A stretch of DNA of 24,195 nt from a virus (Duplodnaviria; Caudoviricetes). This document shows, piece after piece, positions 7,170 to 21,843 of the stretch (its first letter is position 1; every line of letters begins with the position of its first letter). The DNA lies in the IMG/VR virus record IMGVR_UViG_3300030372_003457, positions 1 through 24,195 of that record, one strand, 5' to 3'. The notes under the pieces are model-generated. The model searched no databases, was not told the origin of the DNA, and saw only the letters and a list, made by a program, of their open reading frames with translations. The position numbers and the translations under genes were made by a program.

Positions 7170-8653
7170 TATGCTAATCTGCCGCCTTCCTCTAACATTT
7201 TCATTTGATCGTACATTTTTTGAGCGCCTACTTCAACGTCTCCATCGCCAGCGTTTTTTACAGCCTTAGCTGTAAATACAAATTCATTGTTTGATAACAT
7301 CGCTGGGATATCATCTGCTTTTTCTTTTATACCAACAGGGGGTATAAATCCACCTCTATCTCGTAGGTCTAATTCTTTTATACCTGCTTTATTTTCTCTG
7401 ATAGGTAGCCCCTCGATACCCGCCGCTTGCATAGCGTTCATGCTTGCAGAATCTCCTAGGGCTTTTTTAATTCTACCACCTGAGGCCTCATTCATTCTAA
7501 GACTTAAAGCTTCTCTAGCTTTTTCAGCTGCTTCATTTGGTGAAAGACCCATTTCTAAAAGTTTATTAAAAAGAGCCTTAATTTTATCTAACATTGTATT
7601 AGACGATTTTGCACCATACATAAATCTTTCTTTTTGCATTGTTTGAAAGTCGTCTGTTTCTCTAGGATTCATAAAGAAATTAGATGGATTAATATAATCT
7701 TCAAGTTTTGCAAAAGAAGCCATGTCTCTTGCTTCTGGATTATTAGGAATATTTTCGTCAGTGCCCTTTGCAAATTTAATTCTACCACCTAAAGCTGCTA
7801 GACCTCTATCCTCTAACCTCATCATACTCATTTCTTGAAACTCTTTTCTTGCTGCATCTGCTGCATCTTTTGGAGATAAACCCAGATCTAAATACTTTTC
7901 AAAAAGAGCTTCTAACACTCTCTCATTTGTATCATCAGATGCCATTCTTCTATCTGGTAATACTGGTGCATCTGCAGGTGGTTTTGGTCCAAAAGGATTT
8001 ACAGGTTGTGTTGGGTCTGGTGGTAATACTGGACCATCAGCAAAACCTATTCTGCCGCCTTTTGCATATCCACCCATACCAGCTGTATATTCAGTTGTAT
8101 TAGCAGAAACAAACTCTTCTATTTCTTCAGATCCTGCGTTTGGATTTAAATTTGTATAATATGATCTTAAATAAGATTTTAATTTTTCTGGATCTCTTAA
8201 TTCTTCTTCTGCTTGTTCTTCTGTTAAACCGTATTGAGATGTTAAAAAAGTAGATAGTCCTGCTAATGCACCGCCTTTTAATAACGCTGATTTAATACCA
8301 CCTTCTGTTGCAACTTTTCCAATTGCTTTTTGCATCGCTGGATTTCCAACGGCCATTTCAGGGCCAAAAAGACCGCCTACTACAGGTAAATTAGAAAATT
8401 CAAATCCTGTAGGGCCACCAGAAAATAATTTTCCAAACTGGCCACCACCTAATTTATATGTAGCTGCAGCTAATAGTGCAGCTTTACCAAGATCAGATGA
8501 TGCAATTTTTTTAACTGCTTTGGTTGCACCTTTTACAGCTTTCTTAGCACCTTTAAAAATACTTCCCAGACCATATTGTTCTCTAGGCACAGCGTTCATG
8601 ATTCCACCGCCCATGTATAATTGTCTTTTCATCTGTCCTCTTGTTATTGGCAT
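7169..8653 (-). CDS. Modular internal virion/ejection protein with repeated GGRI motifs
   Basis: 494 aa with an N-terminal amphipathic region (GLGSIFKGAKKAVKGATKAVKKIA), three AxGGRIx(F/K)AxG-type repeats and a C-terminal GGFIP...DDIPAMLSNNEFVFTAKAVKNAG domain. Confidence 0.7.
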   Translation of the reverse strand: MPITRGQMKRQLYMGGGIMNAVPREQYGLGSIFKGAKKAVKGATKAVKKIASSDLGKAALLAAATYKLGGGQFGKLFSGGPTGFEFSNLPVVGGLFGPEMAVGNPAMQKAIGKVATEGGIKSALLKGGALAGLSTFLTSQYGLTEEQAEEELRDPEKLKSYLRSYYTNLNPNAGSEEIEEFVSANTTEYTAGMGGYAKGGRIGFADGPVLPPDPTQPVNPFGPKPPADAPVLPDRRMASDDTNERVLEALFEKYLDLGLSPKDAADAARKEFQEMSMMRLEDRGLAALGGRIKFAKGTDENIPNNPEARDMASFAKLEDYINPSNFFMNPRETDDFQTMQKERFMYGAKSSNTMLDKIKALFNKLLEMGLSPNEAAEKAREALSLRMNEASGGRIKKALGDSASMNAMQAAGIEGLPIRENKAGIKELDLRDRGGFIPPVGIKEKADDIPAMLSNNEFVFTAKAVKNAGDGDVEVGAQKMYDQMKMLEEGGRLA

Positions 8654-8700
8654 AATTTAATTAAATTGTTATAGGCAGGCGTATAAATCCTGAATTTATT

Positions 8701-8729
8701 AATCTACTTGGTTTTTGGAAATAAATCAA
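8701..8729 (-). promoter_or_regulatory. Putative sigma70-type promoter for the ejection-protein block (TTGATT-N17-TAGATT)
   Basis: On the - strand, TTGATT (8729-8724), a 17 nt spacer and TAGATT (8706-8701) lie just upstream of the only sizeable intergenic gap before the 494 aa gene. Confidence 0.5.
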
Positions 8730-8874
8730 GACTTGGCATTATCACCGTAACGTCTCTCCTAATGTCCTCTGGGGACACTCCTTTTGTTTTCCATTCCTGG
8801 TCATTTTCGTACTTTTCTCCAGTCTTTTTGTTAGATATTGTTTCTATGATTTTCTCTGGTTTTAGTTCTTTCAT
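8704..8874 (-). CDS. Small hypothetical protein (56 aa), not in the supplied ORF track
   Basis: MKELKPEKIIETISNKKTGEKYENDQEWKTKGVSPEDIRRDVTVIMPSLDLFPKTK*. Its ATG overlaps the stop of the 113 aa gene (TAATG) and it fills the gap in the operon. Confidence 0.8.
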   Translation of the reverse strand: MKELKPEKIIETISNKKTGEKYENDQEWKTKGVSPEDIRRDVTVIMPSLDLFPKTK

Positions 8875-9215
8875 TATGTTGTTACCTCTCTTGGCTGTAT
8901 TTGTAATATTGAAGCTATAACGTGCAGCTCATTCGCGTCACTAGCTTGTACCTTTAATATCTCACTTTCCTCTACTACAAGGGGTTGAGTTAAAAGTTCT
9001 ACTGTTGTGTTGGTGTCTACTGCTTTTGTTTTAAACAAACTAAACACGTTGCCAGAAGCATCGGTTAACGTAATAGTTATATTACATGAGGACCCAGCAT
9101 CATTAGATACTAACAAAGATTTAACCAAAGAAACGTTTGCTGTTGGTGTCGTATACAACGTTGTGTTGTCTGTTGATGTTAAATCTACTTTTGCATTTAC
9201 AAAACTATTTGACAT
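8874..9215 (-). CDS. Small beta-rich tail-associated virion protein
   Basis: 113 aa, T/S/V-rich with a beta-sandwich-like pattern (TTLYTTP...VKSLLVSND...PLVVEESEILKVQAS). It lies downstream of the nozzle gene and is TAATG-coupled on both sides. Confidence 0.65.
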   Translation of the reverse strand: MSNSFVNAKVDLTSTDNTTLYTTPTANVSLVKSLLVSNDAGSSCNITITLTDASGNVFSLFKTKAVDTNTTVELLTQPLVVEESEILKVQASDANELHVIASILQIQPREVTT

Positions 9216-9379
9216 TAATTTAAAAAGAAGTTTTCAGCTTCTACCTCATCTTTTAATTCTTGTTGGTACGTTGTATTTAATTTTTGTATAATTGCATCTA
9301 GGTCTCTAACCTGTGCATCAGCCACGTCTTGTCTATATTCTTTACTAGGTCTTGTTAATACTTGTACTATCTTTGCCAT
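9215..9379 (-). CDS. Small coiled-coil tail protein (54 aa; tail needle/plug-like position), not in the supplied ORF track
   Basis: MAKIVQVLTRPSKEYRQDVADAQVRDLDAIIQKLNTTYQQELKDEVEAENFFLN*. It has TAATG overlaps with both neighbours and occupies the position of P22 gp26, right after gp10. Confidence 0.8.
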   Translation of the reverse strand: MAKIVQVLTRPSKEYRQDVADAQVRDLDAIIQKLNTTYQQELKDEVEAENFFLN

Positions 9380-11514
9380 TATCTTCTTCCGTCTGGTTGT
9401 ATGTCTAACCTAAATCCACCAAGTTTCCAACTCTGTGCTGCAGCTGTATTTGCAACCTTTAAAGACACTGCTCTTGCTCTAGCCCTTGTATCAACCTTTT
9501 CCGTTGACGATGTAATTGTAAAAGGACCAAGAGGTGAGCTTGCCTCAGTGTTATTTGGAAAGTTTCTTAGGTTTAATGTAATTTGTGTATTACCTGTTTG
9601 TGATAAAAAGTCAGGTATGAATCTTCTAATTTTTGCAAAGAACTCACCTTCACCACCTTGTGAAACATCAAAGTCCCCTGATTGTATGTTAGAAGTTATA
9701 GCTGTTGTTGCCGTAGATGTAACTTGATCTGTGCCAGTTTCATGTTCGTAATAAATAGTGCAACCATCTGTATTGCCAACTACATCATAAGAATTGTCTG
9801 AGCTAGCATCATAGTCTGTAGCGTGTGGTTTTCCAAAAACAGCAGAGTCTTGCCATGTTGTTCTATCTAAAGTTCCTGTTGTCCATATTGGTCTCTGTGG
9901 TGTTGATTCAAAATAATTATAAGTTACAACTCTATCTATAACGGTTGACCCTGAAGAAGAGTAAAACCAATTAATTTCACCGAATAGATTATTTAATCCA
10001 GCGTTTATAAGTTGGTTAGCTGTAGTATTTAAATCATCAAAAACAAAATCTTCTACTAAACATGGTAGTGATTGAAGTGCACCAGCATATTTGAAAAAAC
10101 CATTTTCTGAGAACCAGTAAGCAGCACCATCTACTTCAATCGCTGCATTCTGTCCTATTAATCCACAGTTTGTTCCTACTTGTGCAAAACCAAATGTAAA
10201 TGGTGGTCCAATAAATCTTTGTGTAAATAAGGCAGTGTCAGTCCAAACATAGATTGCATCTCTACCTCTAACAGCTCCCATAATTCTAGACCCGTCTGCA
10301 AGTCTCTGTGTACCAGCTGTATTAGTTGCTGTAGGCGTATATGAATTAATATTCTCTTGATCAGAGAATCTAATAAACATTTGATCTTGTGTAGTCTTTG
10401 TGCCAATCGTAGTTTCTGTGCCGAAGAACACTAAGTGTCTATCAGGTGTAGATACAAGCATATCTCTAGACGCAGTTGGTGCACCCGATATAATTGTAGC
10501 TCTAGTTGCGGTAGCATTTGATGCATCTGAATTCCATTCAAAAACTTCTGCGTTATGTATTAAAGCAATAATTTTATTACCAAAGTTATCAATAGACCAA
10601 AGGCCTGGATCAATTGTTAAATCTCCAGATGCAGCCTCGCCCCACGCTACATAGTCAGAAGTATTAGTTATTGTTGCTCCGTCCGAGTGACTAGCTGCTG
10701 TAGTATTTCTAACCCCTCTGGTTACTCCTGTTAAAGTGTTTCCAGATATACCCGTATAAGATATTTCTTCTGTCCCTATTAAAACATGGTTTGTTCCTGT
10801 CGATGGGAAGTTTGTTGAACTGGTTAAAACAATAGTCGTTGTAGAATCATTGATGGCTCCGTTTAAAGTTGTTGTTTGTGGATTGGCCACAGTACCACTC
10901 CATTGTCCTAATCCCCAACCAAAGCCAGGTAATTGTTCTGCTGGCCCTACTGGGTAATAAATTTGAACTCTAATACCTCCAGATGTTGTGGCTCCAGATC
11001 CAGACTCATTTGATGGCATTGTTATAGTTATTGTAAGATTGGTCGGTGTGCTAGTTACCATAAATTTTTTATCATCAAAATCAGATGCTGAATAATTAGA
11101 GTTTGTGATTGTGGTAAAATTATCTAATAAAATTATATCACCAGGACTTAAGCCATGACCTGAAGAAAAAGTTATAGTAACAGTTGGTGATCCGTTGGTT
11201 GTGCTAAACGCACTAGTAAGTGTTGTTGTAGATTTAATTGGGTGTATGTCATAAAACACACCACCTGAATAAGCGTATAAAATTCTGTTTGTTCCTATGA
11301 TAGAGTACTTAACTCCACCGCTACTTACAATGTGATGCATAGCTCTAGCCGCACCGGTAAGCTTGTTTTCGCCTAATTGAGACCAACCACCTATTTTCTC
11401 TGGTGAGCCATATCTAAATCTAACATTATCACCATCTACCCATTGTCCCTCAGCTTGAGTTTCTGTCAATTGTTTATTAAATCCAGGTAAAAAGTTTACT
11501 TTTTGTAATGCCAT
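9379..11514 (-). CDS. Tail nozzle / packaged-DNA stabilisation protein (P22 gp10 / tail tubular protein B-like beta-propeller)
   Basis: 711 aa. The N-terminus PGFNKQ...WVDGDNVRFRYGSPEKIGGW, internal IRFSDQEN, IYVWTD, NCGLIG and EINWFY, and C-terminal RARARAVSLKV...WKLG are characteristic of podovirus nozzles. It carries a T/S-rich inserted domain. Confidence 0.8.
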   Translation of the reverse strand: MALQKVNFLPGFNKQLTETQAEGQWVDGDNVRFRYGSPEKIGGWSQLGENKLTGAARAMHHIVSSGGVKYSIIGTNRILYAYSGGVFYDIHPIKSTTTLTSAFSTTNGSPTVTITFSSGHGLSPGDIILLDNFTTITNSNYSASDFDDKKFMVTSTPTNLTITITMPSNESGSGATTSGGIRVQIYYPVGPAEQLPGFGWGLGQWSGTVANPQTTTLNGAINDSTTTIVLTSSTNFPSTGTNHVLIGTEEISYTGISGNTLTGVTRGVRNTTAASHSDGATITNTSDYVAWGEAASGDLTIDPGLWSIDNFGNKIIALIHNAEVFEWNSDASNATATRATIISGAPTASRDMLVSTPDRHLVFFGTETTIGTKTTQDQMFIRFSDQENINSYTPTATNTAGTQRLADGSRIMGAVRGRDAIYVWTDTALFTQRFIGPPFTFGFAQVGTNCGLIGQNAAIEVDGAAYWFSENGFFKYAGALQSLPCLVEDFVFDDLNTTANQLINAGLNNLFGEINWFYSSSGSTVIDRVVTYNYFESTPQRPIWTTGTLDRTTWQDSAVFGKPHATDYDASSDNSYDVVGNTDGCTIYYEHETGTDQVTSTATTAITSNIQSGDFDVSQGGEGEFFAKIRRFIPDFLSQTGNTQITLNLRNFPNNTEASSPLGPFTITSSTEKVDTRARARAVSLKVANTAAAQSWKLGGFRLDIQPDGRR

Positions 11515-11550
11515 AGAATTTAAAATATATTAGAAATGTACGTGTTTCAA
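11515..11550 (-). promoter_or_regulatory. Putative sigma70-type promoter, likely leaderless (TTGAAA-N17-TATTTT-N7-ATG)
   Basis: -35 at 11550-11545, an exact 17 nt spacer, -10 TAnnnT at 11527-11522, then 7 nt to the nozzle ATG. No SD is present. Confidence 0.55.
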
Positions 11551-12149
11551 CCTTTTTTAAAATGGGCTGGTAAACCAGGATGAGGCCTGCCATCCCAAAG
11601 ATTGGGATTTTTAGAGCTTTCTTGGTTGTAATGCAAAAACACTTGCACACAGAAATCACCTAAAAAAGGCTCTCTCCAATGTTCTAATTCACAACCATGA
11701 TACAACAAAATATCTCCTGGTTCCAAATTAATTTTAATTTCTTTTTTATCTTTTTTAATAAATATAGGCCAAGGATCTCCACCTAAATTTAAAGTGCCTG
11801 ATATTTCACAAGAAACTCTATCTTTATGTCTTTTTAAAATATCTCCTTTTTTATAAATTCTTTGATAAGAATATGTTGGCACTAATTTTATCTTAATTTT
11901 TCTCTCTATCTCGGATCTTAAAACTTGCAACAAAGTATCCATCGCAATGTCTCCATAATGACAATAGGTGCCATCAACCTGACTATCACCGAAAGAACCT
12001 AAGATAGTTTCGTTAGGAGATATGTACCTTGTTTCTTGCATGGTTGATACAACCTTTCTTTTTAATAAAGAGTATCCCATTAGAAATGTAGCAGATTGTT
12101 TTGTTATAATATTTTTAAATAGTAGATACTTGTTTTTTTTAAAAGACAT
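11547..12149 (-). CDS. 2OG-Fe(II) oxygenase superfamily protein
   Basis: RIYKKGDILKRHKDR contains HxD, LEPGDILLYHGCELEHWR contains the distal His, and the spacing fits a double-stranded beta-helix (DSBH) fold. Confidence 0.85.
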   Translation of the reverse strand: MSFKKNKYLLFKNIITKQSATFLMGYSLLKRKVVSTMQETRYISPNETILGSFGDSQVDGTYCHYGDIAMDTLLQVLRSEIERKIKIKLVPTYSYQRIYKKGDILKRHKDRVSCEISGTLNLGGDPWPIFIKKDKKEIKINLEPGDILLYHGCELEHWREPFLGDFCVQVFLHYNQESSKNPNLWDGRPHPGLPAHFKKG

Positions 12150-12605
12150 TTAATAAACTCCGTATGAAAGAATTATTCTTGGTGTTAGTCCTATTCCTGT
12201 GTGAATAGTATTAGCAGGTATTTTTAATAAATCTCCTTTTTCAACCATATATTCTTTATTGTTAACTTTATACCACGTTTTTCCTTTTACTCCAACTATA
12301 TACACGTCTTCTTTGTCTTTGTGAGTTATACTAGACCCGCCACTTTTCAAAGAAAAAAACATAATTAAATTTGATTTCTTTTTATTCTTGTTAAAGTTTT
12401 CCTCACAATAATCGTAGAAAGGTTTGAAGTCATTGTTGTTTTGTATGTTGTTTATTTTAAAAACAGACTTTAAAACAAACGAGCTATGCCAATCACTAGA
12501 GAACTGTGATTCATAGTTATTGTTATCCAACAACTCAGATATATAATTAAAATCAATATCTCGTTTAAAATCAATTATATTTTTTTCAAAATCTATATTA
12601 GACAT
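12150..12605 (-). CDS. JmjC/cupin_4 (ribosomal oxygenase YcfD-like) hydroxylase
   Basis: HKDKEDVYIVGVKGKTWY and VEKGDLLKIPANTIH mirror the HxDxxDVF..Q..GxxxW and LxPGDxLYIPxxxxH motifs of cupin_4/JmjC protein hydroxylases. Confidence 0.75.
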   Translation of the reverse strand: MSNIDFEKNIIDFKRDIDFNYISELLDNNNYESQFSSDWHSSFVLKSVFKINNIQNNNDFKPFYDYCEENFNKNKKKSNLIMFFSLKSGGSSITHKDKEDVYIVGVKGKTWYKVNNKEYMVEKGDLLKIPANTIHTGIGLTPRIILSYGVY

Positions 12606-13134
12606 AATTAAAATTAATTACCATTCTGTATTTAGTGTCAGTGCTAGACATACCACAATGTTGAAGTTTACTATCAAACACAACTATTTTATTTTCTTCC
12701 GATTTAATTATTTTTTTATTCTTAAATAACGTATAGCCATTGTTAGTGTTAACATAAAAAATAGCGGTTTTAGCACTAGGTACTTCATTATCTATATGCC
12801 ATCCTGTTTGATGAGGTTTTTCTGTGTAGGGCCTGAGATTAGCTTTAATTCTTATTAAAGCGTGAGGATTTAATTTTTTAAGAATTGGATTAAGTATATT
12901 AAAATAAGTGCTGCTACTAATATTATAGTTAATGTAAAAAGTATGGGTAAATTGAAAGTTTCTTAAGTATGATTTTTTATTCTCTTCCTTTCCAAATTTG
13001 AATCTGTATGAAGGCAGTTTGTAAGTATTGGGAGTAATATCATGATTACAATACCAAGGAAAAGCAGGGCTCTCTAAGGTTTGTTTGATTGTGTTTAATT
13101 CTTCTTTTGTTATATAATTTTTAATTACTTTCAT
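12598..13134 (-). CDS. 2OG-Fe(II) oxygenase superfamily protein (marine phage type)
   Basis: RIKANL...GWHID (HxD)...TAIFYVNTNNGYT...VVFDSKLQH (His)...RMVINFNY (2OG-binding Arg). Confidence 0.85.
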   Translation of the reverse strand: MKVIKNYITKEELNTIKQTLESPAFPWYCNHDITPNTYKLPSYRFKFGKEENKKSYLRNFQFTHTFYINYNISSSTYFNILNPILKKLNPHALIRIKANLRPYTEKPHQTGWHIDNEVPSAKTAIFYVNTNNGYTLFKNKKIIKSEENKIVVFDSKLQHCGMSSTDTKYRMVINFNYV

Positions 13135-14557
13135 TTGTTAAGCTCTCTAAAAAACTCTTGTGACTTATCCACATACCTCTATCGTTAAGTCTTTGCTTTT
13201 GAAATTTCATCTTAGACTCACACCATTTTTTAAGTTCTTTTGGCAACATTTCGTATTCTTCTTTTATTTTTTGTTTATCAAAAAACCCTATTTCTTTTAA
13301 TATTAAAGAATAGTTATTAGGATAAAATAAACAGTATTTACTTTTAAAATCTATTTGCATAGGAAGTCGGTTCTTCCAAATAGCTAAATTTTTCTTTAAA
13401 GAATCTGGTAGGTTTAATTTTAATTCTTTCCAAAAAGGTGAATCTTTTTTATCTACCATGTAATGAATAATTACGTAGTCTCTAACGTTCTCTATCAAAT
13501 ATTGAAAGTCTTCGTTGTAATCATCTATGATATGTTGATCGTAGTTTAGCAACATATGTATAAATAAAAAACATTGATTAATACCAAAGCCAATTGATGT
13601 TGCCTCTAATGGTTCTACGAAACTAGAGCTTAAACCTAAAGCAATACAATTACCTTGCCAAGGTTTATCTAAACTGCCAGCATCAAATTTTATGTTAGAA
13701 GCAATTTTAATTTTATGTCCTAAATATTCTTCGCATTCTTTTTGTGCTTCTTCAGCATTAATATATCTATTGTCAAATACATAACCGTTTCCCCATCTAC
13801 CTCTAACAGGAGTTCTCCACATCCAACCAGCTTTCATGGCTCTTGCTGTGACGTAAGGAGGATACTCATCTGTGTCTTTGGTCGGAAAAGCAATGGCCTC
13901 ATTCATAGGCAGATACTCTTTATAAGATTGCCACTTAGCACCTAATTTAGAAATCAATAGTCTTTTAAAACCTGTGCAATCAACAAAAAAATCAGCAACA
14001 TGTTCTTGCTTACCTTTTAACTTTATAATTTTATTGTCTTTAACAACTATATCTTCAATATCATCGTCAACAATTTCTATACCTCTTTCAACACATTTTT
14101 TTAATAACCATTCGTTTAGTTTAAAAGTATTAAAATTAAATTGGTTTGTGGGCACACTTTGAAAATAAACTTTGTTTTGTAGAGCTAGACTGTCGGTATA
14201 TTCTTCTGGTTTTAAATCATAAGCTATTGTGTAAGCCATGGCTATGGAATACTGACCTGCTTGTGTATCTGTTATAAGACTGTTTAAATTATTAAAGTAA
14301 TCATGTTTCATCCAATCTTTAAACAACACACCATACTTAAAGGTTGCTCCCGTTTCTCTTAAACACTCAAGGTAGTCTAAGCTACAGAACTGCAAAAAAT
14401 AACTCCAATGTTCTGTGGATGCTTCGCCAACTCCTATGATACCTATCTTATCAGATTTAATTATTTTAACTTTCATGGTTGGAAATCTTGATTTAAGTAT
14501 CATAGCTGAAGTTAATCCAGCACTACCCCCTCCAACTACACAAATAGATTTCATCAT
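13121..14557 (-). CDS. Flavin-dependent halogenase, tryptophan halogenase (PrnA/RebH) family
   Basis: GxGxxG FAD loop (VVGGGSAG), GVGEAST, ATFKYGVLFKDW (Lys equivalent to PrnA K79), FVDCTGF, GWMWRTP (WxWxIP-like) and FVEPLEATSI (Glu equivalent to PrnA E346). Confidence 0.9.
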   Translation of the reverse strand: MMKSICVVGGGSAGLTSAMILKSRFPTMKVKIIKSDKIGIIGVGEASTEHWSYFLQFCSLDYLECLRETGATFKYGVLFKDWMKHDYFNNLNSLITDTQAGQYSIAMAYTIAYDLKPEEYTDSLALQNKVYFQSVPTNQFNFNTFKLNEWLLKKCVERGIEIVDDDIEDIVVKDNKIIKLKGKQEHVADFFVDCTGFKRLLISKLGAKWQSYKEYLPMNEAIAFPTKDTDEYPPYVTARAMKAGWMWRTPVRGRWGNGYVFDNRYINAEEAQKECEEYLGHKIKIASNIKFDAGSLDKPWQGNCIALGLSSSFVEPLEATSIGFGINQCFLFIHMLLNYDQHIIDDYNEDFQYLIENVRDYVIIHYMVDKKDSPFWKELKLNLPDSLKKNLAIWKNRLPMQIDFKSKYCLFYPNNYSLILKEIGFFDKQKIKEEYEMLPKELKKWCESKMKFQKQRLNDRGMWISHKSFLESLTNESN

Positions 14558-15180
14558 TTAAATGGCACTCCTAAATTCCAAACTACTAGACTATATCTGG
14601 TGCCTTTAGTTATTGGTGTAATCCTATGGTAAACAAACGAGGGAAAAACAGTTATCGAGCCCTTTTGTTTTTCGGCCTTGTAAATTTTTAAAGTCATGTC
14701 TTCGCTTAACTCACCTAATTCTAAGTTACCACCTTCATAGTCGTTAGGGTCGGACAACTGACATGTAACTGATAACTTTCTAACTTTACCTTTTCTATAC
14801 TTTCCCTCAGGATATGGGTCTGTAAAGCTATCTCTATGCCAACCATAATACTGGCCCTTTCTATATTTTGTAAACTGTATTTCTTCTGAATGATCCCAAC
14901 TAAAATTCCACTCAGCTTGTTCGTTTGCAGTGTTTATAAACGGAAGTATCTCTCTATGAATCCATGGTTCGTTTAACCAAACAATATCTGACTTTCTTTT
15001 CTTTTTAACTTTTTTAAACTCCTCTTTTGATAAAGGGTTTTTCATTTGATCTCTATGATTACCAACTATCCCTGTTATGCCCTTTACAGGCTTTTTCTTG
15101 GTAGAAAAGTCTATAACATCTTTACAAAACCTATCGCTTAAAGCTTTAGGAAAATGCCAAAAGGTATGTTTTAAATTCAT
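14554..15180 (-). CDS. 2OG-Fe(II) oxygenase, prolyl 4-hydroxylase/PKHD-type
   Basis: QFTKYRKGQYYGWHRD (HxD), RKLSVTCQLSDPNDYEGGNL and GSITVFPSFVYHRITPITKGTRYSLVVW (His...RxS). Confidence 0.9.
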   Translation of the reverse strand: MNLKHTFWHFPKALSDRFCKDVIDFSTKKKPVKGITGIVGNHRDQMKNPLSKEEFKKVKKKRKSDIVWLNEPWIHREILPFINTANEQAEWNFSWDHSEEIQFTKYRKGQYYGWHRDSFTDPYPEGKYRKGKVRKLSVTCQLSDPNDYEGGNLELGELSEDMTLKIYKAEKQKGSITVFPSFVYHRITPITKGTRYSLVVWNLGVPFK

Positions 15181-15734
15181 TATCTTGCTCTATAATTAAT
15201 GTTAATAAAAATGTTTGGATCTTCTGATAAATTTTCAGATATAAAATATCTTAATGTTGAGGGCATTATTAAGAACATATTATTTTTTACAGGGACTTGA
15301 TGTAATTTATTAATTCTTAAATGATCATCATATTCTATAACTATAGAAGAAGACTTTTCTGTAACATCTACACAATAGATCATAGTGTAGCTTGGTGAAT
15401 CTAATAAGTGATTAAGATTTAAATTATTACGAGAATAAGATTGTTCTAAATGTTCTAAGATATTAACGTAATAATTTTTTGACTCTAAAACAACTCCTGC
15501 TTTAATTTTAAAAAAATCTTTTATATAATCCTCTACAAATCTTAACTCAGATATATGTCTCATTAATTTGTAGTCTTTGTGCTCCCAAGTATTTTCAATA
15601 AAGTGTTTTCTATTATTTAAAACATATCCTTGGACAGCCTCTTTTTTAATTTTTTCTCTGTCTATTTCGTATCCTTTAGGACTGTCTATGGTCCCTGTAT
15701 AAATAGCTGTTTCAGATAATATTGTCTTTTTCAT
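15180..15734 (-). CDS. Oxygenase-fold (TIGR02466-like) protein lacking metal ligands
   Basis: The DSBH-like pattern YTMIYCV...IVIEY...PVKNNMFLIMPSTLRYFISEN...IFININY is present, but the expected HxD/H and distal His positions read SRNN and PSTLRY. Confidence 0.6.
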   Translation of the reverse strand: MKKTILSETAIYTGTIDSPKGYEIDREKIKKEAVQGYVLNNRKHFIENTWEHKDYKLMRHISELRFVEDYIKDFFKIKAGVVLESKNYYVNILEHLEQSYSRNNLNLNHLLDSPSYTMIYCVDVTEKSSSIVIEYDDHLRINKLHQVPVKNNMFLIMPSTLRYFISENLSEDPNIFININYRAR

Positions 15735-15776
15735 TTCTATAGTATATATACACGATATAAAGTTATAAGCAAATAC
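15735..15776. promoter_or_regulatory. 42 bp divergent promoter region
   Basis: This AT-rich gap separates divergent ATGs at 15734 (-) and 15777 (+). On the - strand TATACT (15746-15741) ends 6 nt before the ATG, and neither side has an SD. The -35 elements are weak. Confidence 0.45.
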
Positions 15777-16220
15777 ATGAAATATAAAGTTTATTACGAC
15801 ATATTATCTACCTCTGAAAAAAGCACTTTGCTTAATGTAGTTAAAACTAAAGTATATGATAGAGGTAAAGATTTCCCTGGTTTACAAAGTAACGCAGACC
15901 TGCATTTTAACGTGGCAACACATCCACTATTAATAAAGCTAGAAAAATATATGCCTAAAAATTCAACTATATTAAAATGTTGGGCAAACTATACAACAGG
16001 AGATTTTAAGTCTTGGCACACTCATCCAGGCACGTTTTCAATTGTTTATATGTTACAAAACAAATCAAAATTAGGGACTGTTTTAAAAGATGAAAAAGAA
16101 GAAATACAGACTATCTGCCCAGAAAACTCTTGTGTTATATTTGACAATTCTATTACTCATAGCTCTCCTTCGGCAGATTACAATTTAGACAGATATACAT
16201 TAGCAATGGACTTTGAATGA
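15777..16220 (+). CDS. 2OG-Fe(II) oxygenase (HxH variant, TIGR02466-like)
   Basis: KCWANY...SWHTHP (HxH)...FSIVYML...CVIFDNSITHSSP (His)...DRYTLAMDF (Arg). Confidence 0.8.
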   Translation: MKYKVYYDILSTSEKSTLLNVVKTKVYDRGKDFPGLQSNADLHFNVATHPLLIKLEKYMPKNSTILKCWANYTTGDFKSWHTHPGTFSIVYMLQNKSKLGTVLKDEKEEIQTICPENSCVIFDNSITHSSPSADYNLDRYTLAMDFE

Positions 16221-16567
16221 TTTTATTAGCCTCTTTTATTTTATGGTTAGTTTTAGTTTTAATTATCTACAATCATGTTGGTTGGAGAGAAATAAAAGAC
16301 TCTTACTCCATGTGGTGGCACAAAGATTATTGGAGAAAAAGATATAACGTTGTAGAGGCAATGGCTTGGTCAGGTAAACTGTTTGTTATTTTACCTGCTA
16401 TATTTTTTCAAATAGAAGTTTGGTGGGCACATATTATAACATTAATGACTTCTTCTCTATTAATATGGGTTAGCGAACAAAAACTTTTACCCACATTAGT
16501 TGCTTTTAACACCATATGGATATTTATAAGTTCGTTCATACTGATAAGGTATTTTTTTAATTTATGA
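16217..16567 (+). CDS. Small integral membrane protein (about 4 TM segments), function unknown
   Basis: 116 aa, hydrophobic and Trp-rich, with ATGA overlaps to both neighbours. Confidence 0.75.
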   Translation: MILLASFILWLVLVLIIYNHVGWREIKDSYSMWWHKDYWRKRYNVVEAMAWSGKLFVILPAIFFQIEVWWAHIITLMTSSLLIWVSEQKLLPTLVAFNTIWIFISSFILIRYFFNL

Positions 16568-17289
16568 TAGAATATAAACAAATTATAGCTGACTACACAC
16601 ATCACAATAAACTGCTTAATAAAATAAAGTTTTATGATTTTATGAATCATGGTTATGACCCTGTCTCCAATTTATTGGACAAAGATTTTATTATGAAAAG
16701 AGAAGCTTCTTTGTATTTAAAACTTTTAGAAAACATAGATACCAACAATAAAAATATTTTAGATGTTGGATGTGGTAGAGGAGGCGGTGTTGCTCTTTAT
16801 AAAAAATATTTTAATTTCAAAAATGTATATGGCTGTGATATTACAGATGTTAATATTGATTATGCAAAATCAAAACATAAAGACATAAATTTTAAAGTCG
16901 CTAACGCAGAAAACTTAACATATGATAAAAACACTTTTGATATTATTACTAACGTAGAGTCTATGTCATTATATATAGATCAAAGTAAATTTTTAAAAAA
17001 TGTAATTAAATTATTAAAACCAGATGGTCTATTTATATGCACTGATTGTAGCTATAGAACATTAGAAACTTTTTATAAAAACAAACATTTATTTAAATCT
17101 ATAGAGGTAAAAGATATAACCGATAATGTAGCCACGGCTTGTTTAAAAAATATACAAGAATATTCTAAATGGAAAGATTCAGAAGCAAAAACTTTTACTT
17201 TAGGTATGTTGGAAGAAAAGTATGAAAACTATTTTAATAGAAAAGATGTTTTTAATATTTTTTATTGTGCACCTGGTGCAACTGCTTGA
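16564..17289 (+). CDS. Class I SAM-dependent methyltransferase (Methyltransf_11/25; O-methyltransferase-like)
   Basis: Motif I ILDVGCGRGGG, YGCDIT, ANAENLTYDKNTFDIITNVES and LLKPDGLF, with an N-terminal FMNHGY. Confidence 0.9.
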   Translation: MIEYKQIIADYTHHNKLLNKIKFYDFMNHGYDPVSNLLDKDFIMKREASLYLKLLENIDTNNKNILDVGCGRGGGVALYKKYFNFKNVYGCDITDVNIDYAKSKHKDINFKVANAENLTYDKNTFDIITNVESMSLYIDQSKFLKNVIKLLKPDGLFICTDCSYRTLETFYKNKHLFKSIEVKDITDNVATACLKNIQEYSKWKDSEAKTFTLGMLEEKYENYFNRKDVFNIFYCAPGATA

Positions 17290-17642
17290 ACCCAAGCTTG
17301 AGTATCTTCATCCCAATCATAAGGACCACCTGTAGTAGGTTTAGCAACTGGGGGATCCCAGTTTAAACTTGAAGTATTAAAATTCCATGAAGGGTATGGT
17401 TTAGGTGGAATAAAAGCATCGTGTTCTGTATTGTAAGTGCCACCTATATCAGCAGCTCTTGTTCTTAATGATCCATCTATTTTGTATTCTTTCCAGTAAG
17501 GCCACTTGTGAACTTTAGTTAAAAATGAAACACCCGTTTCTTCTGATCTAACATTTGTTGCATCATTTGTACAATTAGCTTCACTAACAGTGTGAATTCC
17601 TAAAACATTGTTTTCAGAATCTAATTTTGCGAAGTATGCCAT
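17262..17642 (-). CDS. Partner of the Gly-rich tail-tip protein (tail fibre assembly/chaperone-like)
   Basis: MAYFAKLDSENNV...IGGTY...DAFIPPKPYPSW...WDPPVAKP...YDWDEDTQAW belongs to a family I recall sitting directly downstream of Gly-rich proteins in marine phages. Confidence 0.6.
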   Translation of the reverse strand: MAYFAKLDSENNVLGIHTVSEANCTNDATNVRSEETGVSFLTKVHKWPYWKEYKIDGSLRTRAADIGGTYNTEHDAFIPPKPYPSWNFNTSSLNWDPPVAKPTTGGPYDWDEDTQAWVQAVAPGAQ

Positions 17643-17644
17643 AA

Positions 17645-18520
17645 TTATCCTGCGTATACTCCATCTGATGTAAAGCTGTGAATAGTGTCACTACCTGAAG
17701 TAGTAACAGATCCGCTAGTAGTTGCTGAACTTGCTGTTAATCTTCTAATAATAACTATTCCGCTACCACCAACTATTCCTGGGTTTCCTGCTCCTTGTCC
17801 GTTACCTCCGTCGCCTTCTCCGTTTGTTCCAGCTGCCCCTGGGCCTGGTTGTCCAGCGCCGCCTGAGGCGTAAGTTACAGATGAGCCAGTAATTGAATTT
17901 GATGAGCCTGATCCGCCACCGCCGCCTGAAGAAGAACTTCCGCCGCTACCAGTTCCGCCAGCGCCGCCGCCTCCACCGCCGCCTGTATTTCCTACAGGAG
18001 AGTGACTAGGGTGTCCTGCTCCTCCGTCATTTCCTTGTGGTGGTGATGTAGGGGGTGTATCTCCGCTTCCGCCGCCATGGCCTCCGCCACCGCCGCCTCC
18101 GCCAGATCCTCCGGATCCTCCAGATCGTACTCCTCCGTTACCGCCGCCAGCTGAAGTTATAGAACTAAAAACAGAGTCTCCTCCAGATCCTCCACTAGAG
18201 TCAGGTGTTCCAGGACCAGCTGGTCCACCAGCTCCGACAGTTATAGGGTAATCAGTTAAAGTAAAAACGGGAAATGATTTATCATCAATTTTTCTAAAAC
18301 CACCAGCTCCGCCACCGCCAGATTGATAGTTTCCAGATGCTCCAAAACCAGCTCCGCCACCGCCAGCAACAACTAAATATTGAACGTTGTATTCGACAGG
18401 AACAAGACCACCAGAACCAAATCCTAAAACTTGATAACCAAAGGATTTTCTTCTTGGTCTAAGCCTTTTTTTATTTTGTCTTGGACTTTCCGCAAAAAGT
18501 TTATTTTTTATATCTCTCAT
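17645..18520 (-). CDS. Glycine/proline-rich putative receptor-binding (adhesin-like) tail-tip protein
   Basis: The Gly-rich domain is framed by VQYLVVAGGGG, YPITVGAGG, GGDSVFSSITSAGGG, SITGSSVTYASGG and GGSGIVIIR. It follows the tail fibre gene and has a basic N-terminal leader plus FGYQVLGFGSGG. Confidence 0.75.
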   Translation of the reverse strand: MRDIKNKLFAESPRQNKKRLRPRRKSFGYQVLGFGSGGLVPVEYNVQYLVVAGGGGAGFGASGNYQSGGGGAGGFRKIDDKSFPVFTLTDYPITVGAGGPAGPGTPDSSGGSGGDSVFSSITSAGGGNGGVRSGGSGGSGGGGGGGGHGGGSGDTPPTSPPQGNDGGAGHPSHSPVGNTGGGGGGGAGGTGSGGSSSSGGGGGSGSSNSITGSSVTYASGGAGQPGPGAAGTNGEGDGGNGQGAGNPGIVGGSGIVIIRRLTASSATTSGSVTTSGSDTIHSFTSDGVYAG

Positions 18521-18532
18521 TCGCTACTCCTA

Positions 18533-19765
18533 TTATACGTCGTTAGCAGCGTCTGTAGTGAAGAATAATTTAATTCCTAATAATTTTGCATCAGCTGTTA
18601 GATCATCTGCTGAAACATCTCTTGATATTTGGAAGAACACATACTCATCTGTACTAGGTGAGCCTGCTATCGTAACTGCTCCACTTTCCGCTGTAACTGC
18701 TAAATCATTCGCTGTTCCACTCATTGCTTTCGCTGTTGGGCCTACTGCTGTTCCAAAAGCAGTATTAAGATCGCCGTTGTCTGCTAATGCAACACCTTGT
18801 AAAACAAATGCTGTTGTGCCTGTATTTGTTGAGTTTGCTGTGAAGAATGCTTGAAAAGTTACTGTGCCTTCATTCCATGATTTTGGAAATGCAACAGCAA
18901 ATTGTGCAAATTCATCTGAATCTTTATCAAAATCTAAAGATTTTAATTCTGGTCCATTACTTAATTCTGTTTGAGCTAAATCTGCGCATCCGTTTGTTGA
19001 ATTTGGATACATAGCTACTGCAGGAACCCACATAGTTTCTTTCCCTGCAATCTTAACTGCAGAAACAGATCCACCGCCATCTTCAGCTTTAATAACTCCA
19101 GTTCCTTTTGTTGCGAAAGAAATACCTATGTTTGAATCATCTCCTGTTGCACTAATAGTAGGGTTATTACCAGTAGCTGCATTAGCTAATGTAATTTCAT
19201 TAACTGCAGAACTTGTAGCTGTTAAAAGAGCTAATTGAAGTCCATTAGTATCTAAAATAGAAGTTCCAATTTTTGGAGATGTTAATGTTTTGTTAGTTAA
19301 AGTTTGTGTTCCAGCAGTAGTAACATTACCATTCGGTAACGTAAGAATGTCTGGATTAGTTCCATCGTTCGCAGTTGCGAATACAACAGCATCACCTTTG
19401 TCAGTTGTTGCAAAGGTAAATGAATCACCAGATCCTGAAGCATATTTAAATTGTACTGTGTATGCACCTGATGTTGAATTTCTTAAAAAATAAAAAGTTT
19501 GTACGTCTATTGGAATAGTTACAATTTGATTTCCTGTAATAGTTCCTGTGAACTCAATCATTCTGTGAGATAAAACTGCTCCAGTTGATCCATCAGAAAC
19601 AGGTAAAGCTGTAGTATCTGCACTACCAGCTATTGATTGCTGTGTAAATCCACCAGAAATTTGTTCAAAGATTTGTAAATTTGTATTTGTTTTTGTACCC
19701 CATGTTCCAGCATTTTCGCCAGTTGCCTGAAGCTCTATACCGAGTGGTGTATATGTTGATGCCAT
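18533..19765 (-). CDS. Tail fibre protein
   Basis: N-terminal MASTY...LQATGENAGTWGTKTNTNL attachment motif, TQTLTNKTLTSP fibre motif, T/S/A/G-rich composition and an AGGAGA SD. Confidence 0.8.
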   Translation of the reverse strand: MASTYTPLGIELQATGENAGTWGTKTNTNLQIFEQISGGFTQQSIAGSADTTALPVSDGSTGAVLSHRMIEFTGTITGNQIVTIPIDVQTFYFLRNSTSGAYTVQFKYASGSGDSFTFATTDKGDAVVFATANDGTNPDILTLPNGNVTTAGTQTLTNKTLTSPKIGTSILDTNGLQLALLTATSSAVNEITLANAATGNNPTISATGDDSNIGISFATKGTGVIKAEDGGGSVSAVKIAGKETMWVPAVAMYPNSTNGCADLAQTELSNGPELKSLDFDKDSDEFAQFAVAFPKSWNEGTVTFQAFFTANSTNTGTTAFVLQGVALADNGDLNTAFGTAVGPTAKAMSGTANDLAVTAESGAVTIAGSPSTDEYVFFQISRDVSADDLTADAKLLGIKLFFTTDAANDV

Positions 19766-19792: not shown

Positions 19793-20671
19793 TTAAGCTA
19801 CATCTGTATAGCTCGTATTTGAACCTGTGTCAACATCAGAATAAGCTTGAATTCCAAAACCAGTAGCAGTGCCAAATACGGCTACAGAACCCGTAGCTTG
19901 TTGGCCAGTTAGTCCCATAACATCCGCTGGAACTAAAGTTCCAACTGCAGATGTAGTTGAAAGTCCTGTTAATCCCATGACATCCGCTGGAGATATTGAA
20001 CCTACACTAGATGTTGATGCTAAACCTGTAAGATCAATAATAGGACTAGAATTAATACTAACCGATCCAACAGAAGAAGTTGCAGAAACTCCAGTTATTC
20101 CAATGACATCAGCGGGCACTAAAGTTCCCACAGCAGAAGTTGCTGCTTGACCAGTTAATCCCATCACATCTGCTGGAGTTAATGATCCAACAGAAGAAGT
20201 TGAAGAAACTCCAGTTAATGAAAATTCAACACTACCAATTATTGTAGGTGCTCCAACAGAAGAAGTTGAAGAAACTCCAGTTAGTCCCATTACATCTGCG
20301 GGAGATAAAACAAAAGTTCCCCAACCTTGACCTTGACCCCAAGAACCTTTGTTCCAAGTGTTTCCAACTCCAACAAAAGATGACATTGCATCAGGAGCAG
20401 TTAGTTCAACTAACATTCCTGATTCTCCCCAGGTTTCATTACCCCAAGGATCTTGACCCCAACCTTGATTTATTTCTGCAGAAATTGATACTGAACCAAC
20501 AGATAAAGTTGCCTCTACCCCTGTTAAATTTACTTGTTGTTCACCTAAATCATTCCAAGTTGTTCCAGGTTCATTCCAAGATTTTGCACCCCACCCAGTT
20601 ACAATGGGATCAGTGGTTCCCCAACGGCCAGTATTCCAGGTTGTTCCTGATTGGTTCCATGTATTAGCCAT
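19793..20671 (-). CDS. Virion protein with Trp-rich blocks and 20/22-aa tandem repeats
   Basis: 292 aa with 12 Trp in three WGxxxW blocks and seven LTGxxxTSxVG repeats, five of them carrying PADV(M/I)G. Confidence 0.75.
   Translation of the reverse strand: MANTWNQSGTTWNTGRWGTTDPIVTGWGAKSWNEPGTTWNDLGEQQVNLTGVEATLSVGSVSISAEINQGWGQDPWGNETWGESGMLVELTAPDAMSSFVGVGNTWNKGSWGQGQGWGTFVLSPADVMGLTGVSSTSSVGAPTIIGSVEFSLTGVSSTSSVGSLTPADVMGLTGQAATSAVGTLVPADVIGITGVSATSSVGSVSINSSPIIDLTGLASTSSVGSISPADVMGLTGLSTTSAVGTLVPADVMGLTGQQATGSVAVFGTATGFGIQAYSDVDTGSNTSYTDVA
20066..20283. repeat. Three copies of a 32 bp direct repeat inside the repeat-protein gene
   Basis: tccaacagaagaagttgaagaaactccagtta is identical at 20186-20217 and 20252-20283, with one mismatch at 20066-20097. 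Confidence 0.9.
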
Positions 20672-21135: not shown

Positions 21136-21843
21136 TTAAGGGTTCGTTGACGGTATTGTTATTCTAACAGCACCATCTGTGTAGTCATCTCGTCTTCTTC
21201 TTCCGATTTGCTCTACACCAAATTTATCTACTTCTTGTTTATACTTATTTTCATATAATGTCAACATATCTGCTGGGCCTTTTAGGAAGCCATAAGTTTC
21301 TGCTAAACAGCAGTATAATAGGCCATTAGGGAAGTTCAGACTGATATAATTACTTTGATTATCCGACGCTAAAGTAGTTGGCATTTTGTTGTAGTGAACT
21401 CTAAATTTGTATGTCGTATCGGGAACTGGAGCAAACATCATTCTTCCAGAGTTAGTGTCACCATCTCCTGTAGCACCACCAAACATAGCATAATATTTAG
21501 GTTGGCCTCTTTTTGCTGATTCTGTAGATGAAACATATTCTTGTAAATAAGTAATATCCTTTTTTTCTAAAAAAACATTAGCACCAGTTGTATCAGATGT
21601 AGAGTCATAAACTTGTATGGCTCTAATAAATAAAGCTCCTCCTGGAGCGTTAATTGTTTCTTGTCCTGTAACTAAATTACCTATCTGTTGTTTTTTATCT
21701 GCATCAATAGGAACATCTCTCATGATTCTATATTGTGCATTTAAAATAATATTTTCTAATTGATCTGTAGTTAAGACGTTAGAATCTACTTCTGTGTAAT
21801 TTCTAATTTGTGTAACTAAAGTGCTATAACTAATTCCTGCCAT
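21136..21843 (-). CDS. Head-tail adaptor / tail tubular protein A-like
   Basis: Helical N-terminus (YSTLVTQIRNY...IILNAQYRI), GQPKYY, FAPVPDTTY and LLYCCLAETYGFLK fit the podovirus adaptor pattern. Confidence 0.75.
   Translation of the reverse strand: MAGISYSTLVTQIRNYTEVDSNVLTTDQLENIILNAQYRIMRDVPIDADKKQQIGNLVTGQETINAPGGALFIRAIQVYDSTSDTTGANVFLEKKDITYLQEYVSSTESAKRGQPKYYAMFGGATGDGDTNSGRMMFAPVPDTTYKFRVHYNKMPTTLASDNQSNYISLNFPNGLLYCCLAETYGFLKGPADMLTLYENKYKQEVDKFGVEQIGRRRRDDYTDGAVRITIPSTNP

Follow-up and report, generated by a model that had tools for sequence, protein, structure and literature searches.

Enzyme families of a variable oxygenase and halogenase cassette track residues of the adjacent glycine-rich, predicted tail-tip protein in tailed phage DNA

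Introduction

Arrays of oxygenase and halogenase genes are among the commonest 'auxiliary metabolic genes' (AMGs) of marine phages, and a tested substrate is not given for them in the papers considered here. Those of Syn9 (Iyer et al., 2010; PMC2938197) and S-SSM6a (Iyer et al., 2021; PMC7824862) hold tandem unrelated oxygenases together with JmjC-type and halogenase genes, and the passages devoted to these clusters read them as secondary metabolism or capsule decoration, with no residue-level test. As substrates, the 2010 paper does propose tail-collar proteins and glycine-rich, collagen-like ones, though in different operons, which are bacterial and include sulfotransferases. Here we analyze an array with the same kinds of genes in a stretch of 24,195 nt of viral DNA (Caudoviricetes; IMG/VR record IMGVR_UViG_3300030372_003457, 38% complete), the whole of which is called the window. 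Its nine variable genes adjoin a gene for a glycine-rich protein of 291 amino acids (aa), and in related loci the enzyme families that are present track the residues found in that protein. We therefore consider it likely that the cassette enzymes covalently and post-translationally tailor the phage's own Gly-rich, predicted tail-tip protein.

For HTVC023P-type pelagiphages, Wittmers et al. (2022; PMC9599517) describe, in the part dealing with AMGs, a 'ferrochelatase' gene that is always adjoined by an oxygenase gene; lineage, gene families and clustering are the same as in the window. That part of the paper reads the genes as related to iron or haem and names no substrate, whereas the 'ferrochelatase' of the window has a predicted 2-oxoglutarate (2OG) oxygenase fold and its family tracks Pro. 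The main text of PMC9599517 contains none of the words 'glycine', 'halogenase' and 'hypervariable'.

Among flavin-dependent halogenases, VirX1 has an open active site, prefers iodide and was assayed with small aromatics, and the table of the review that covers it gives neither a native cluster nor a native substrate (PMC8407142). The closest folds to the 200-aa oxygenase of the window are the prolyl 4-hydroxylases PPHD (4iw3), PHD2 and vCPH (5c5t) of a Chlorella virus, which share its facial triad; vCPH is a viral precedent for Pro hydroxylation in a structural-type substrate. Their identity to the 200-aa enzyme is 13-16%, and its candidate substrate is not a Gly-X-Y collagen. Receptor-binding tips such as Pam3 gp24 with its chaperone gp25 (PMC9608196) and S16 gp38 resemble the 291-aa protein in having GGGGxGG-type Gly motifs between variable loops and a small partner gene next to them; unlike it, they have a helical stalk in place of its short basic N-terminus, no PDB sequence match connects them, and the relevant descriptions mention no modifying enzymes.

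The gene clusters are thus already in print. The residue-level substrate assignment appears to be new and is well supported, the chemistry being a prediction: a search of open-access PMC and bioRxiv full text, with subscription papers outside its scope, yielded no paper with an enzyme-residue link, and the parts of PMC7029224, PMC12906663 and PMC13243795 bearing on the subject add no substrate claim.

Results

Related loci were fetched from IMG/VR with six queries taken from the window or its relatives and one for the 126-aa partner of the Gly-rich protein, and from JGI metagenomes in one search. Open reading frames (ORFs) were called, and regions were kept if bounded by both anchor genes, which in the window are those of a conserved 410-aa tail-fibre-like protein (18533-19765, minus strand; upstream anchor, N-terminal part matching phrog_31104) and of a conserved 711-aa virion structural protein (9379-11514, minus strand; downstream anchor, phrog_3287). 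This gave 93 unique regions in a first round and 101 in a second. Related loci carry L numbers, and c0 to c88 are enzyme families clustered in this analysis. At least one oxygenase-family gene occurs in 192/194 anchor-bounded regions and a separate Gly-rich gene in 160/194, so that their neighbourhood is more than chance. The number of oxygenase-family genes per cassette ranges from 1 to 11 (median 5), and hardly any two phages have the same gene content. The 29/101 second-round regions without a separate Gly-rich gene were handled apart; among the 26 different fibres in them, 25 have their own Gly-rich domain at the end. From 90 Gly-rich regions L015, L070 and L150 were removed as belonging to another lineage or architecture, and one allele was then taken per group above 60% non-Gly identity, giving 62 discovery groups (87 loci); with the 48 validation groups from new loci the total is 110.

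A joint phylogenetic regression with tree covariance was performed for 11 enzyme families and 21 residue features. Six of the 231 cells pass Bonferroni correction, all of them on the enzyme-residue diagonal and spanning five enzyme families: c8-Cys (t = 12.3), c9 with the motif H-x-F (10.3), c7-Pro (6.1), c7 with Pro-Pro (5.3), halogenase with loop His (5.0) and c10-Asn (4.2). Along this diagonal five enzyme families are each paired with a named residue in a named protein. The same links hold in 46 further loci, some of them incomplete and none with less than 3.5 kb downstream (Cys, 3e-9; His, 8e-5; Pro, 1e-5; H-x-F, 5e-6), and in the 12 of these without any of six enzyme families the Gly-rich protein has, per 300 aa, 0-1.3 Cys and 0-0.9 His. 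In three neighbouring proteins, Pro and Cys content shows no relation to the enzymes. The cultured phages HTVC023P and HTVC033P and the assembled genome 023Pt_psg01 fit the Cys and Pro-Pro links; the stretches read of HTVC023P (Gly-rich fibres gp59-62) and HTVC033P (gp62 and gp64) contain no halogenase gene. The first-pass annotation of the window had supposed that the enzymes act on the receptor-binding tip or other virion proteins, and had proposed to test whether oxygenase number and type co-vary with Pro content and allele of the Gly-rich protein. The idea of the Gly-rich protein as substrate stands up to this test in a sharper form, with enzyme type tracking residue type; oxygenase number is barely linked to Pro content (Spearman 0.19, p = 0.048).

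The Pro link was found in a discovery screen of 43 families against 819 short motifs in the 62 allele groups. Among the 35,217 tests, c7 with Pro-Pro ranked first (counts 48/1/1/12, p = 7.7e-11), the best of 200 permutations reaching 3e-6, and L281, one of the exceptions, does carry Pro-Pro in its full-length Gly-rich protein. At matched Pro content the link holds (29/1/1/9), and it is not seen in the partner or the anchor proteins. The prediction was fixed in writing ahead of the analysis of new loci, and in the 48 new groups the counts were 27/4/6/11 (p = 3.8e-4), weaker than in discovery. In 880 composition tests on the pooled 110 groups, c7-Pro reached 4e-14 and PKHD-Pro 8e-13; the PKHD subfamily co-occurs with c7 and tracks Pro, and the two are not separable. 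On a Gly tree, i.e., one of the Gly-rich proteins, with Pro, Cys and His masked, c7-Pro is represented by 5 pairs, 4.8 of them up, and backbone trees give 8 and 12 independent c7/Pro-Pro pairs; the Gly tree is preferred, because swaps of whole cassettes can inflate the pair counts of backbone trees. A link of c7 with Phe was rejected, since it was lost under phylogenetic control, and a strict rule of c7 if and only if Pro-Pro was rejected as well, as it is broken in validation and invalid in a clade with fused fibres. The window has c7 and PKHD genes and two Pro-Pro in its 291-aa protein.

The strongest link found, an almost perfect one, is that of Cys with c8, a three-His 2OG oxygenase family (PF13759) represented by L276:3958-4599 and 38 relatives, and also by gp66 of HTVC023P. 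It had been noted beforehand as a secondary lead, and with at least 4 Cys as the feature the 48 new groups gave 10/4/0/34 (p = 1.5e-7); the pooled composition tests gave 1e-17. The masked Gly tree yields 27 independent pairs (26.5 up, 0 down), and if strongly supported branches alone are used c8-Cys is the only significant link (8 pairs, p = 0.008). The sole Cys-free allele among the 39 that are c8-bearing is that of L281, where c8 (8371-9003) has lost three conserved His. In a close pair of alleles, L361 has c8 and 3 Cys and L519 neither c8 nor Cys, and in L438, a c8-bearing locus with tail-collar fibres, Cys lies in their variable tips. The c8-bearing alleles contain 197 Cys spread over 112 alignment columns, at most 10 per column, in strands and loops, at positions where other alleles have Ser, Thr, Asp or Glu (1.5-2.4-fold). 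Simple disulfides were rejected as an explanation, even and odd Cys counts being equally frequent (19 alleles each). PDB searches with c8 returned two uncharacterised proteins and nothing else. A tandem duplication of 13 residues in the c8 of L048:4755-5456 may be an assembly artefact. The window has neither c8 nor Cys in its Gly-rich protein.

For the halogenase, the pooled composition tests gave 4e-9 with His (median 4 versus 1 His), and the masked Gly tree gives 17 pairs (12.8 up, 2.0 down; phylogenetic generalised least squares, p = 9e-8). With phylogeny controlled, no link of the halogenase with Trp, Tyr, Phe, Cys or Pro was found in the 110 alleles. Since the 291-aa protein has no Trp and Trp does not co-vary, the target of the halogenase in the Gly-rich protein points to His and not to Trp; free Trp, or Trp in other proteins, is nevertheless a possible substrate. 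The window has the halogenase together with three loop His. In the cyanophages Syn10, P-TIM40 and S-H38 halogenase genes follow Gly-rich genes that encode 6-13 His each, and S-SM1, which has no halogenase in the stretch read, has a Gly-rich gene with 2 His. In Syn10 (L561:12339-19100, CPUG_00137 to 00131) VirX1 and a second halogenase stand directly after a small partner gene and three Gly-rich genes, which encode 6, 11 and 11 His; P-TIM40 and S-H38 have a similar arrangement.

Family c9 is present only alongside H-x-F: 37/37 c9-bearing alleles of the pooled groups have the motif, versus 8/73 others, and the masked Gly tree gives 11 pairs (7.7 up, 0 down). For c10, which is absent from the window, and Asn, it gives 22 pairs (15.3 up, 3.9 down). 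Both halves of the data support the His, H-x-F and Asn links. In the window c9 occurs with H281-x-F283.

The Gly_rich_2 protein of the window (17645-18520, minus strand; 291 aa), which is the candidate substrate, matches PF21722 with E = 1.5e-16 and 61.6 bits against a cut-off of 24.3 over residues 41-259, and its Atlas clusters are 95-99% PF21722. It contains 93 Gly, 17 Pro and 4 His and lacks both Cys and Trp. Fifteen Gly runs alternate with variable loops, and the prolines, with Pro-Pro at 156-157 and 160-161, sit between the runs; His 148, 170 and 173 lie in loops and H-x-F at 281-283. The 17 Pro and the four Pro motifs listed in the first-pass annotation are all there. Its proposal that hydroxyproline stabilises polyproline II helices is not indicated, and surface decoration is likelier than helix stabilisation because the prolines lie between Gly runs. 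The N-terminus is short and basic: residues 1-37 (18410-18520, minus strand) form a basic extension that is missing from many alleles, and it is followed by a nearly invariant motif, F-G-Y-x-x-L-G-F-G, which might be a fibre anchor or an enzyme-recognition site. PDB profile and single-sequence searches gave no match for the Gly-rich protein, low complexity limiting such searches, and tblastn against annotated phages gave none. Family and position are the grounds for the labels 'adhesin' and 'tail fibre', which are putative, and a fibre tip like Pam3 gp24 or gp38 is suggested by family, position and fusion to the fibre, as a sister clade of 25 related loci has the N-terminal part of the 410-aa fibre fused to a Gly-rich C-terminal domain. 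The 126-aa partner (17262-17642, minus strand; phrog_7759), encoded in 110/110 cassettes analyzed, is by its position likely a fibre-assembly or adaptor protein; PDB searches with it gave no match.

All nine cassette ORFs were found, spanning 11547-17289, and the genes proposed for them proved real: five oxygenases with iron ligands, one without, a halogenase, a methyltransferase and a hydrophobic protein. The 200-aa 2OG-Fe(II) oxygenase of family c7 (11547-12149, minus strand) matches phrog_2954, labelled 'ferrochelatase', and its ligands H108-D110..H157 are invariant in 56/56 family members. A model from a 56-row alignment (mean predicted local distance difference test score, pLDDT, 95.7) has the double-stranded beta-helix fold of 2OG oxygenases. 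In two programs its top structural match is the EF-Tu prolyl hydroxylase of Pseudomonas, 4iw3 (E = 1e-8; Z = 15.9, root mean square deviation 3.0, 164 residues aligned), tied with other prolyl hydroxylases; PDB sequence searches with the family gave no match. The label 'ferrochelatase' was rejected, because the fold matches prolyl hydroxylases, the HxD..H triad is invariant and a chelatase fold is not seen. The c7 enzyme is a predicted prolyl hydroxylase, and the modelled fold agrees with the Pro link without proving it. The second oxygenase presumably linked to Pro is the 208-aa PKHD-type 2OG-Fe(II) enzyme (14554-15180, minus strand; PF13640, 5e-15; H115-D117..H185), to which PKHD/YbiX models match below their cut-off.

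The 478-aa flavin-dependent halogenase, family c11 (13121-14557, minus strand), matches PF04820 (E = 1e-87) and contains GGGSAG at 9-14, the catalytic Lys, K74, invariant in 23/23, FVEPLE at 313-318 and, in the WxWxIP region, WMWRTP, in which the two Trp and Pro are present and Thr takes the position of Ile; residues 89-138 do not align with PyrH. It shares its family with VirX1 (Syn10 CPUG_00131, PDB 6qgm; 26% identity, E = 8e-42) and is nearer to the halogenases of P-SSM2 and S-H38 (41-43%). Short halogenases of about 385 aa that have the catalytic Lys and lack an internal stretch of about 70 residues and the C-terminal part were seen at L113:4645-5808, L183:7173-8327 and L339:12790-13947.

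The 184-aa oxygenase-fold protein of family c9 (15180-15734, minus strand; phrog_81, 3e-6) has no iron ligands, the family alignment showing no conserved His pair. A 151-aa cupin/JmjC-like oxygenase (12150-12605, minus strand; Cupin_2, 4e-6; JmjC_2, 7e-6; H95-D97..H135) is replaced by another oxygenase in the close relatives L002 and L005, and a 2OG-Fe(II) oxygenase of family c6 (12598-13134, minus strand; H113-D115..H159) matches phrog_274, labelled 'DNA endonuclease V'; this PHROG label and 'ferrochelatase' both appear to be misannotations of 2OG-Fe(II) oxygenases. On the plus strand follow a 147-aa oxygenase with the three-His ligands H81-x-H83..H128 and not HxD (15777-16220; phrog_81, 6e-10), a hydrophobic 116-aa membrane protein (16217-16567) without family match, with 21 relatives in metagenomes and without a tblastn match in annotated phages, and a class I S-adenosylmethionine methyltransferase (16564-17289; PF08241, E = 8e-18), whose top NCBIfam matches are small-molecule O-methyltransferases, every one below cut-off. 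Pairwise, the cassette oxygenases show no significant similarity (E above 0.03). Tandem unrelated dioxygenases plus a halogenase make the cassette an array of the Syn9 type, with c6, c7 and c11 common to the window and Syn10; the dUTPase-fold protein with conserved Cys of such arrays has no counterpart, as the cassette has no unassigned gene of that size. Among the 110 cassettes c6 occurs in 66, the cupin/JmjC-like gene in 5, the 147-aa oxygenase in 4, the methyltransferase in 2 and the membrane gene in 1.

The structural genes and their order resemble those of HTVC023P and HTVC027P, with a terminal helicase gene on the opposite strand, and the 711-aa protein is 47% identical to that of 023Pt_psg01, 49% to that of HTVC027P and 41% to that of HTVC023P. 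By these features the phage is an HTVC023P-type pelagiphage, a member of an abundant marine group; the similarity of the 711-aa protein and the shared gene order suggest Pelagibacter or a relative as host. Read along the minus strand, the order is the 410-aa fibre-like gene, the Gly-rich gene, the partner gene, the nine variable genes and the 711-aa gene. The cassette thus lies inside the tail module behind fibre, Gly-rich gene and partner, as first annotated. Three of the nine genes (15777-16220, 16217-16567 and 16564-17289) run opposite to the tail module, a point absent from that annotation, so the cassette is not one operon. Inverted enzyme genes are present in 13/110 cassettes, and L009 and L342 have the inverted block of oxygenase and methyltransferase (15777-17289 in the window) without the membrane gene. 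The nine genes have 25-34% G+C and the flanking tail genes 37-42%. Most of the cassette is bridged by contigs of two other runs, namely one of run X1, possibly from the same sample, that spans 11827-18140 unbroken, and contigs of run X2, from another study, that span 11797-15326 and 15678-18442. In three DNA runs the summed contig depth over 12170-18500 is far below that of both anchor genes, a variable-island pattern. Promoter and terminator scans stayed at chance level, and one RNA run, with 7% of words matched, gave no evidence of expression.

Discussion

If the cassette enzymes tailor the tip, they would act late in infection, before or during folding of the Gly-rich protein; for HTVC027P, Table S3 of PMC12753301 puts three island oxygenases into the 'Late' class, along with the genes for capsid and tail. 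The 200-aa and 208-aa oxygenases would then probably hydroxylate prolines in loops of the T-P-P-x-S-P-P-Q-G type, and a somewhat less secure but still favoured step is that the halogenase, with reduced flavin of the host and halide from seawater, halogenates loop His 148, 170 and 173. That the ligand-less 184-aa protein recognises or processes the His of the H-x-F strand is a tentative suggestion, and it is more tentative still that the remaining oxygenases and the methyltransferase add further marks. Where c8 is present, Cys might be oxidised or otherwise converted, and the Ser, Thr, Asp or Glu of other alleles at the sites of Cys favour a product that is polar or acidic. Each phage would thus combine a tip allele with a matched enzyme kit, and the chemically varied surface of the tip might serve host binding, metal binding or stability.

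A gene-encoded chain on which several enzymes act, each at a residue of its own, is characteristic of the tailoring of ribosomally synthesised and post-translationally modified peptides (RiPPs), and the proposed tailoring of the tip would work in a like manner, or like the maturation of viral collagen. The first-pass annotation had called the cassette RiPP-like, a description that we abandon: the candidate substrate is a structural protein of 291 aa, leader and export features are absent, the basic and optional N-terminal extension is not shown to be a leader, and family-library matches of the nine proteins and their neighbours include no protease or transporter family.

A number of observations speak against tailoring of the tip or weaken single links. 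The support is entirely correlative, and no modified residue has been seen. On the Gly tree c7 changes only five times (sign test, p = 0.06), so the Pro link has few independent events, and the PKHD subfamily goes up 3.7 and down 2.1 times. Exceptions to c7/Pro-Pro number 10/48 in validation; in the clade with fused fibres, 13/25 tips with a (shorter) c7 lack Pro-Pro, and HTVC008M, which has c7, lacks Pro-Pro in the single Gly protein seen there. For the 200-aa model, oxygenases of small molecules and nucleic acids come just 1-2 Z units under the prolyl hydroxylases. With regard to the halogenase, H-x-P, the motif guessed in advance, failed in validation (p = 0.56) and P-x-H was marginal (p = 0.049); 17/89 halogenase-free alleles hold at least 3 His, the halogenase loci L124, L478 and L034 have 0-1 His, and His in the two anchor proteins shows a weak link to the halogenase (p = 0.02). 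Family c9 is linked as well to how much His the 126-aa partner contains (p = 4e-8), and the split-half support for His, H-x-F and Asn is not blind, because these links came from the pooled set. Families c6, c0, c13 and others show no residue link in the joint regression, and in the window c6, the cupin, the 147-aa oxygenase, the methyltransferase and the membrane gene carry no residue assignment. Fibres of cyanophages also have 2-16 Trp, and Cys without a c8 match; the halogenases of P-SSM2 and S-RIM44, and a c8 relative (35%) in MW202545, lie away from Gly-rich genes. The late signal in HTVC027P is 17-40 times under that of the tail-collar gene and could be read-through.

Indirect coupling, in which the enzymes produce a small ligand or change a molecule of the host surface while the His, Cys and Pro of the tip stay unmodified and bind the product or a metal, would explain residue tracking too, and we regard it as improbable. 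Both His and Cys serve as ligands of metals, the methyltransferase is similar to small-molecule O-methyltransferases, the cassette includes a membrane gene, and iron in tail proteins has been proposed earlier (the Ferrojan-horse idea, cited in PMC12753301). The 197 Cys over 112 columns, in even and odd numbers alike, are however unlike a binding site, and family-library searches of the window found no precursor-building enzyme and no transporter family. It is considerably less probable that the product of the array is a secondary metabolite with halogen and hydroxyl groups, or that the array decorates the capsule or envelope of the host, its place by the tail genes being incidental. The relevant passages on Syn9 (PMC2938197) and S-SSM6a (PMC7824862) propose this, VirX1 halogenates many small aromatics in vitro according to the part of PMC8407142 concerned, and some phage halogenases lie far from fibre genes; such a pathway, however, gives no reason for residue tracking in 27 (Cys) and 17 (His) independent pairs, leaves the dead c8 beside a Cys-free allele unexplained and sits badly with gene content that differs in almost every phage.

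Hitchhiking, i.e., tip allele and enzyme set inherited or swapped as a block so that the correlations reflect shared history, is equally unlikely. The genes lie within 7 kb, c7 has its few changes, c9 (11 changes) and H-x-F (9 changes) go with subfamilies, and the His of the partner goes with c9 too. Nevertheless, the residue-masked Gly tree shows 27 changes of c8 and 17 of the halogenase, the coupling extends across fibre folds and phage groups, and shared history would not pair each enzyme with a single residue and leave the rest of the 231 cells without a link. Least probable is modification of phage DNA bases. 2OG oxygenases and methyl- and carbamoyltransferases do act on phage DNA, and AlkB and TET folds are in the fold list of the 200-aa model (Z = 12-14.5), but the nine proteins have no match to TET/JBP, AlkB or DNA-methylase families, the residue links would be left unexplained, and the known DNA-hypermodification genes of the lineage sit by the polymerase in the part of PMC9599517 that treats them. 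A six-frame search for PF12851 gave no match in this 38% complete record, and the controls likewise gave none.

Tailoring of the tip remains the reading that we prefer, and we lean, with more caution, towards a wider one: marine tailed phages may possess a modular, residue-coded system of fibre modification, with one enzyme family per residue mixed with the fibre allele, that comprises Pro hydroxylases, a peptidyl-His halogenase, a 2OG-dependent Cys-modifying enzyme, an Asn enzyme and an iron-less reader of H-x-F. The viral 'tryptophan' halogenases, with VirX1 among them, would then be halogenases of protein His, and virions that rank with the most abundant of the sea may bear halogenated and oxidised tips. 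If so, host range would depend on chemistry that cannot be read from the sequence of the fibre, virion-maturation genes would stand behind many AMG calls (such as 'ferrochelatase', 'endonuclease V' and 'tryptophan halogenase'), a substrate in nature would be found for VirX1, and halogenation of peptidyl His and 2OG-dependent modification of Cys would count as new activities of enzymes.

Additional features of the locus and its relatives

Some of the 110 cassettes contain sulfotransferase (10), APS-kinase-like (5) or carbamoyltransferase (5) genes, for example those of L056, L085, L109 and L252. These genes would suit a second-step decoration of new hydroxyls; no residue link was found for these families in the 110 cassettes.

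The L421-L483 clade (e.g., L421:1902-5632) has no separate Gly-rich gene, the fused fibre being followed by PKHD and the shorter c7 enzyme, and often encodes a protein of about 250 aa with a conserved C-x-P-F-L-D, perhaps the Cys/dUTPase-fold protein of the Syn9 array. At L137:3263-5300 and L150:1-6000, Kelch-like propeller proteins with Pro-Pro in their loops take the place of the Gly-rich gene, and the cassette retains c7 and PKHD.

Elsewhere in the window, 19793-20671 (minus strand) encodes a 292-aa protein without family match that has N-terminal W-x-x-x-x-W repeats and about six repeats of some 21 aa of the L-T-G-x-x-x-T-S-S-V-G type. Two SU10_adaptor (PF24175) genes, 21136-21843 and 22636-23364, occur in a single tail module, and a 494-aa protein without family match (7169-8653, minus strand) contains the repeat G-G-R-I three times.

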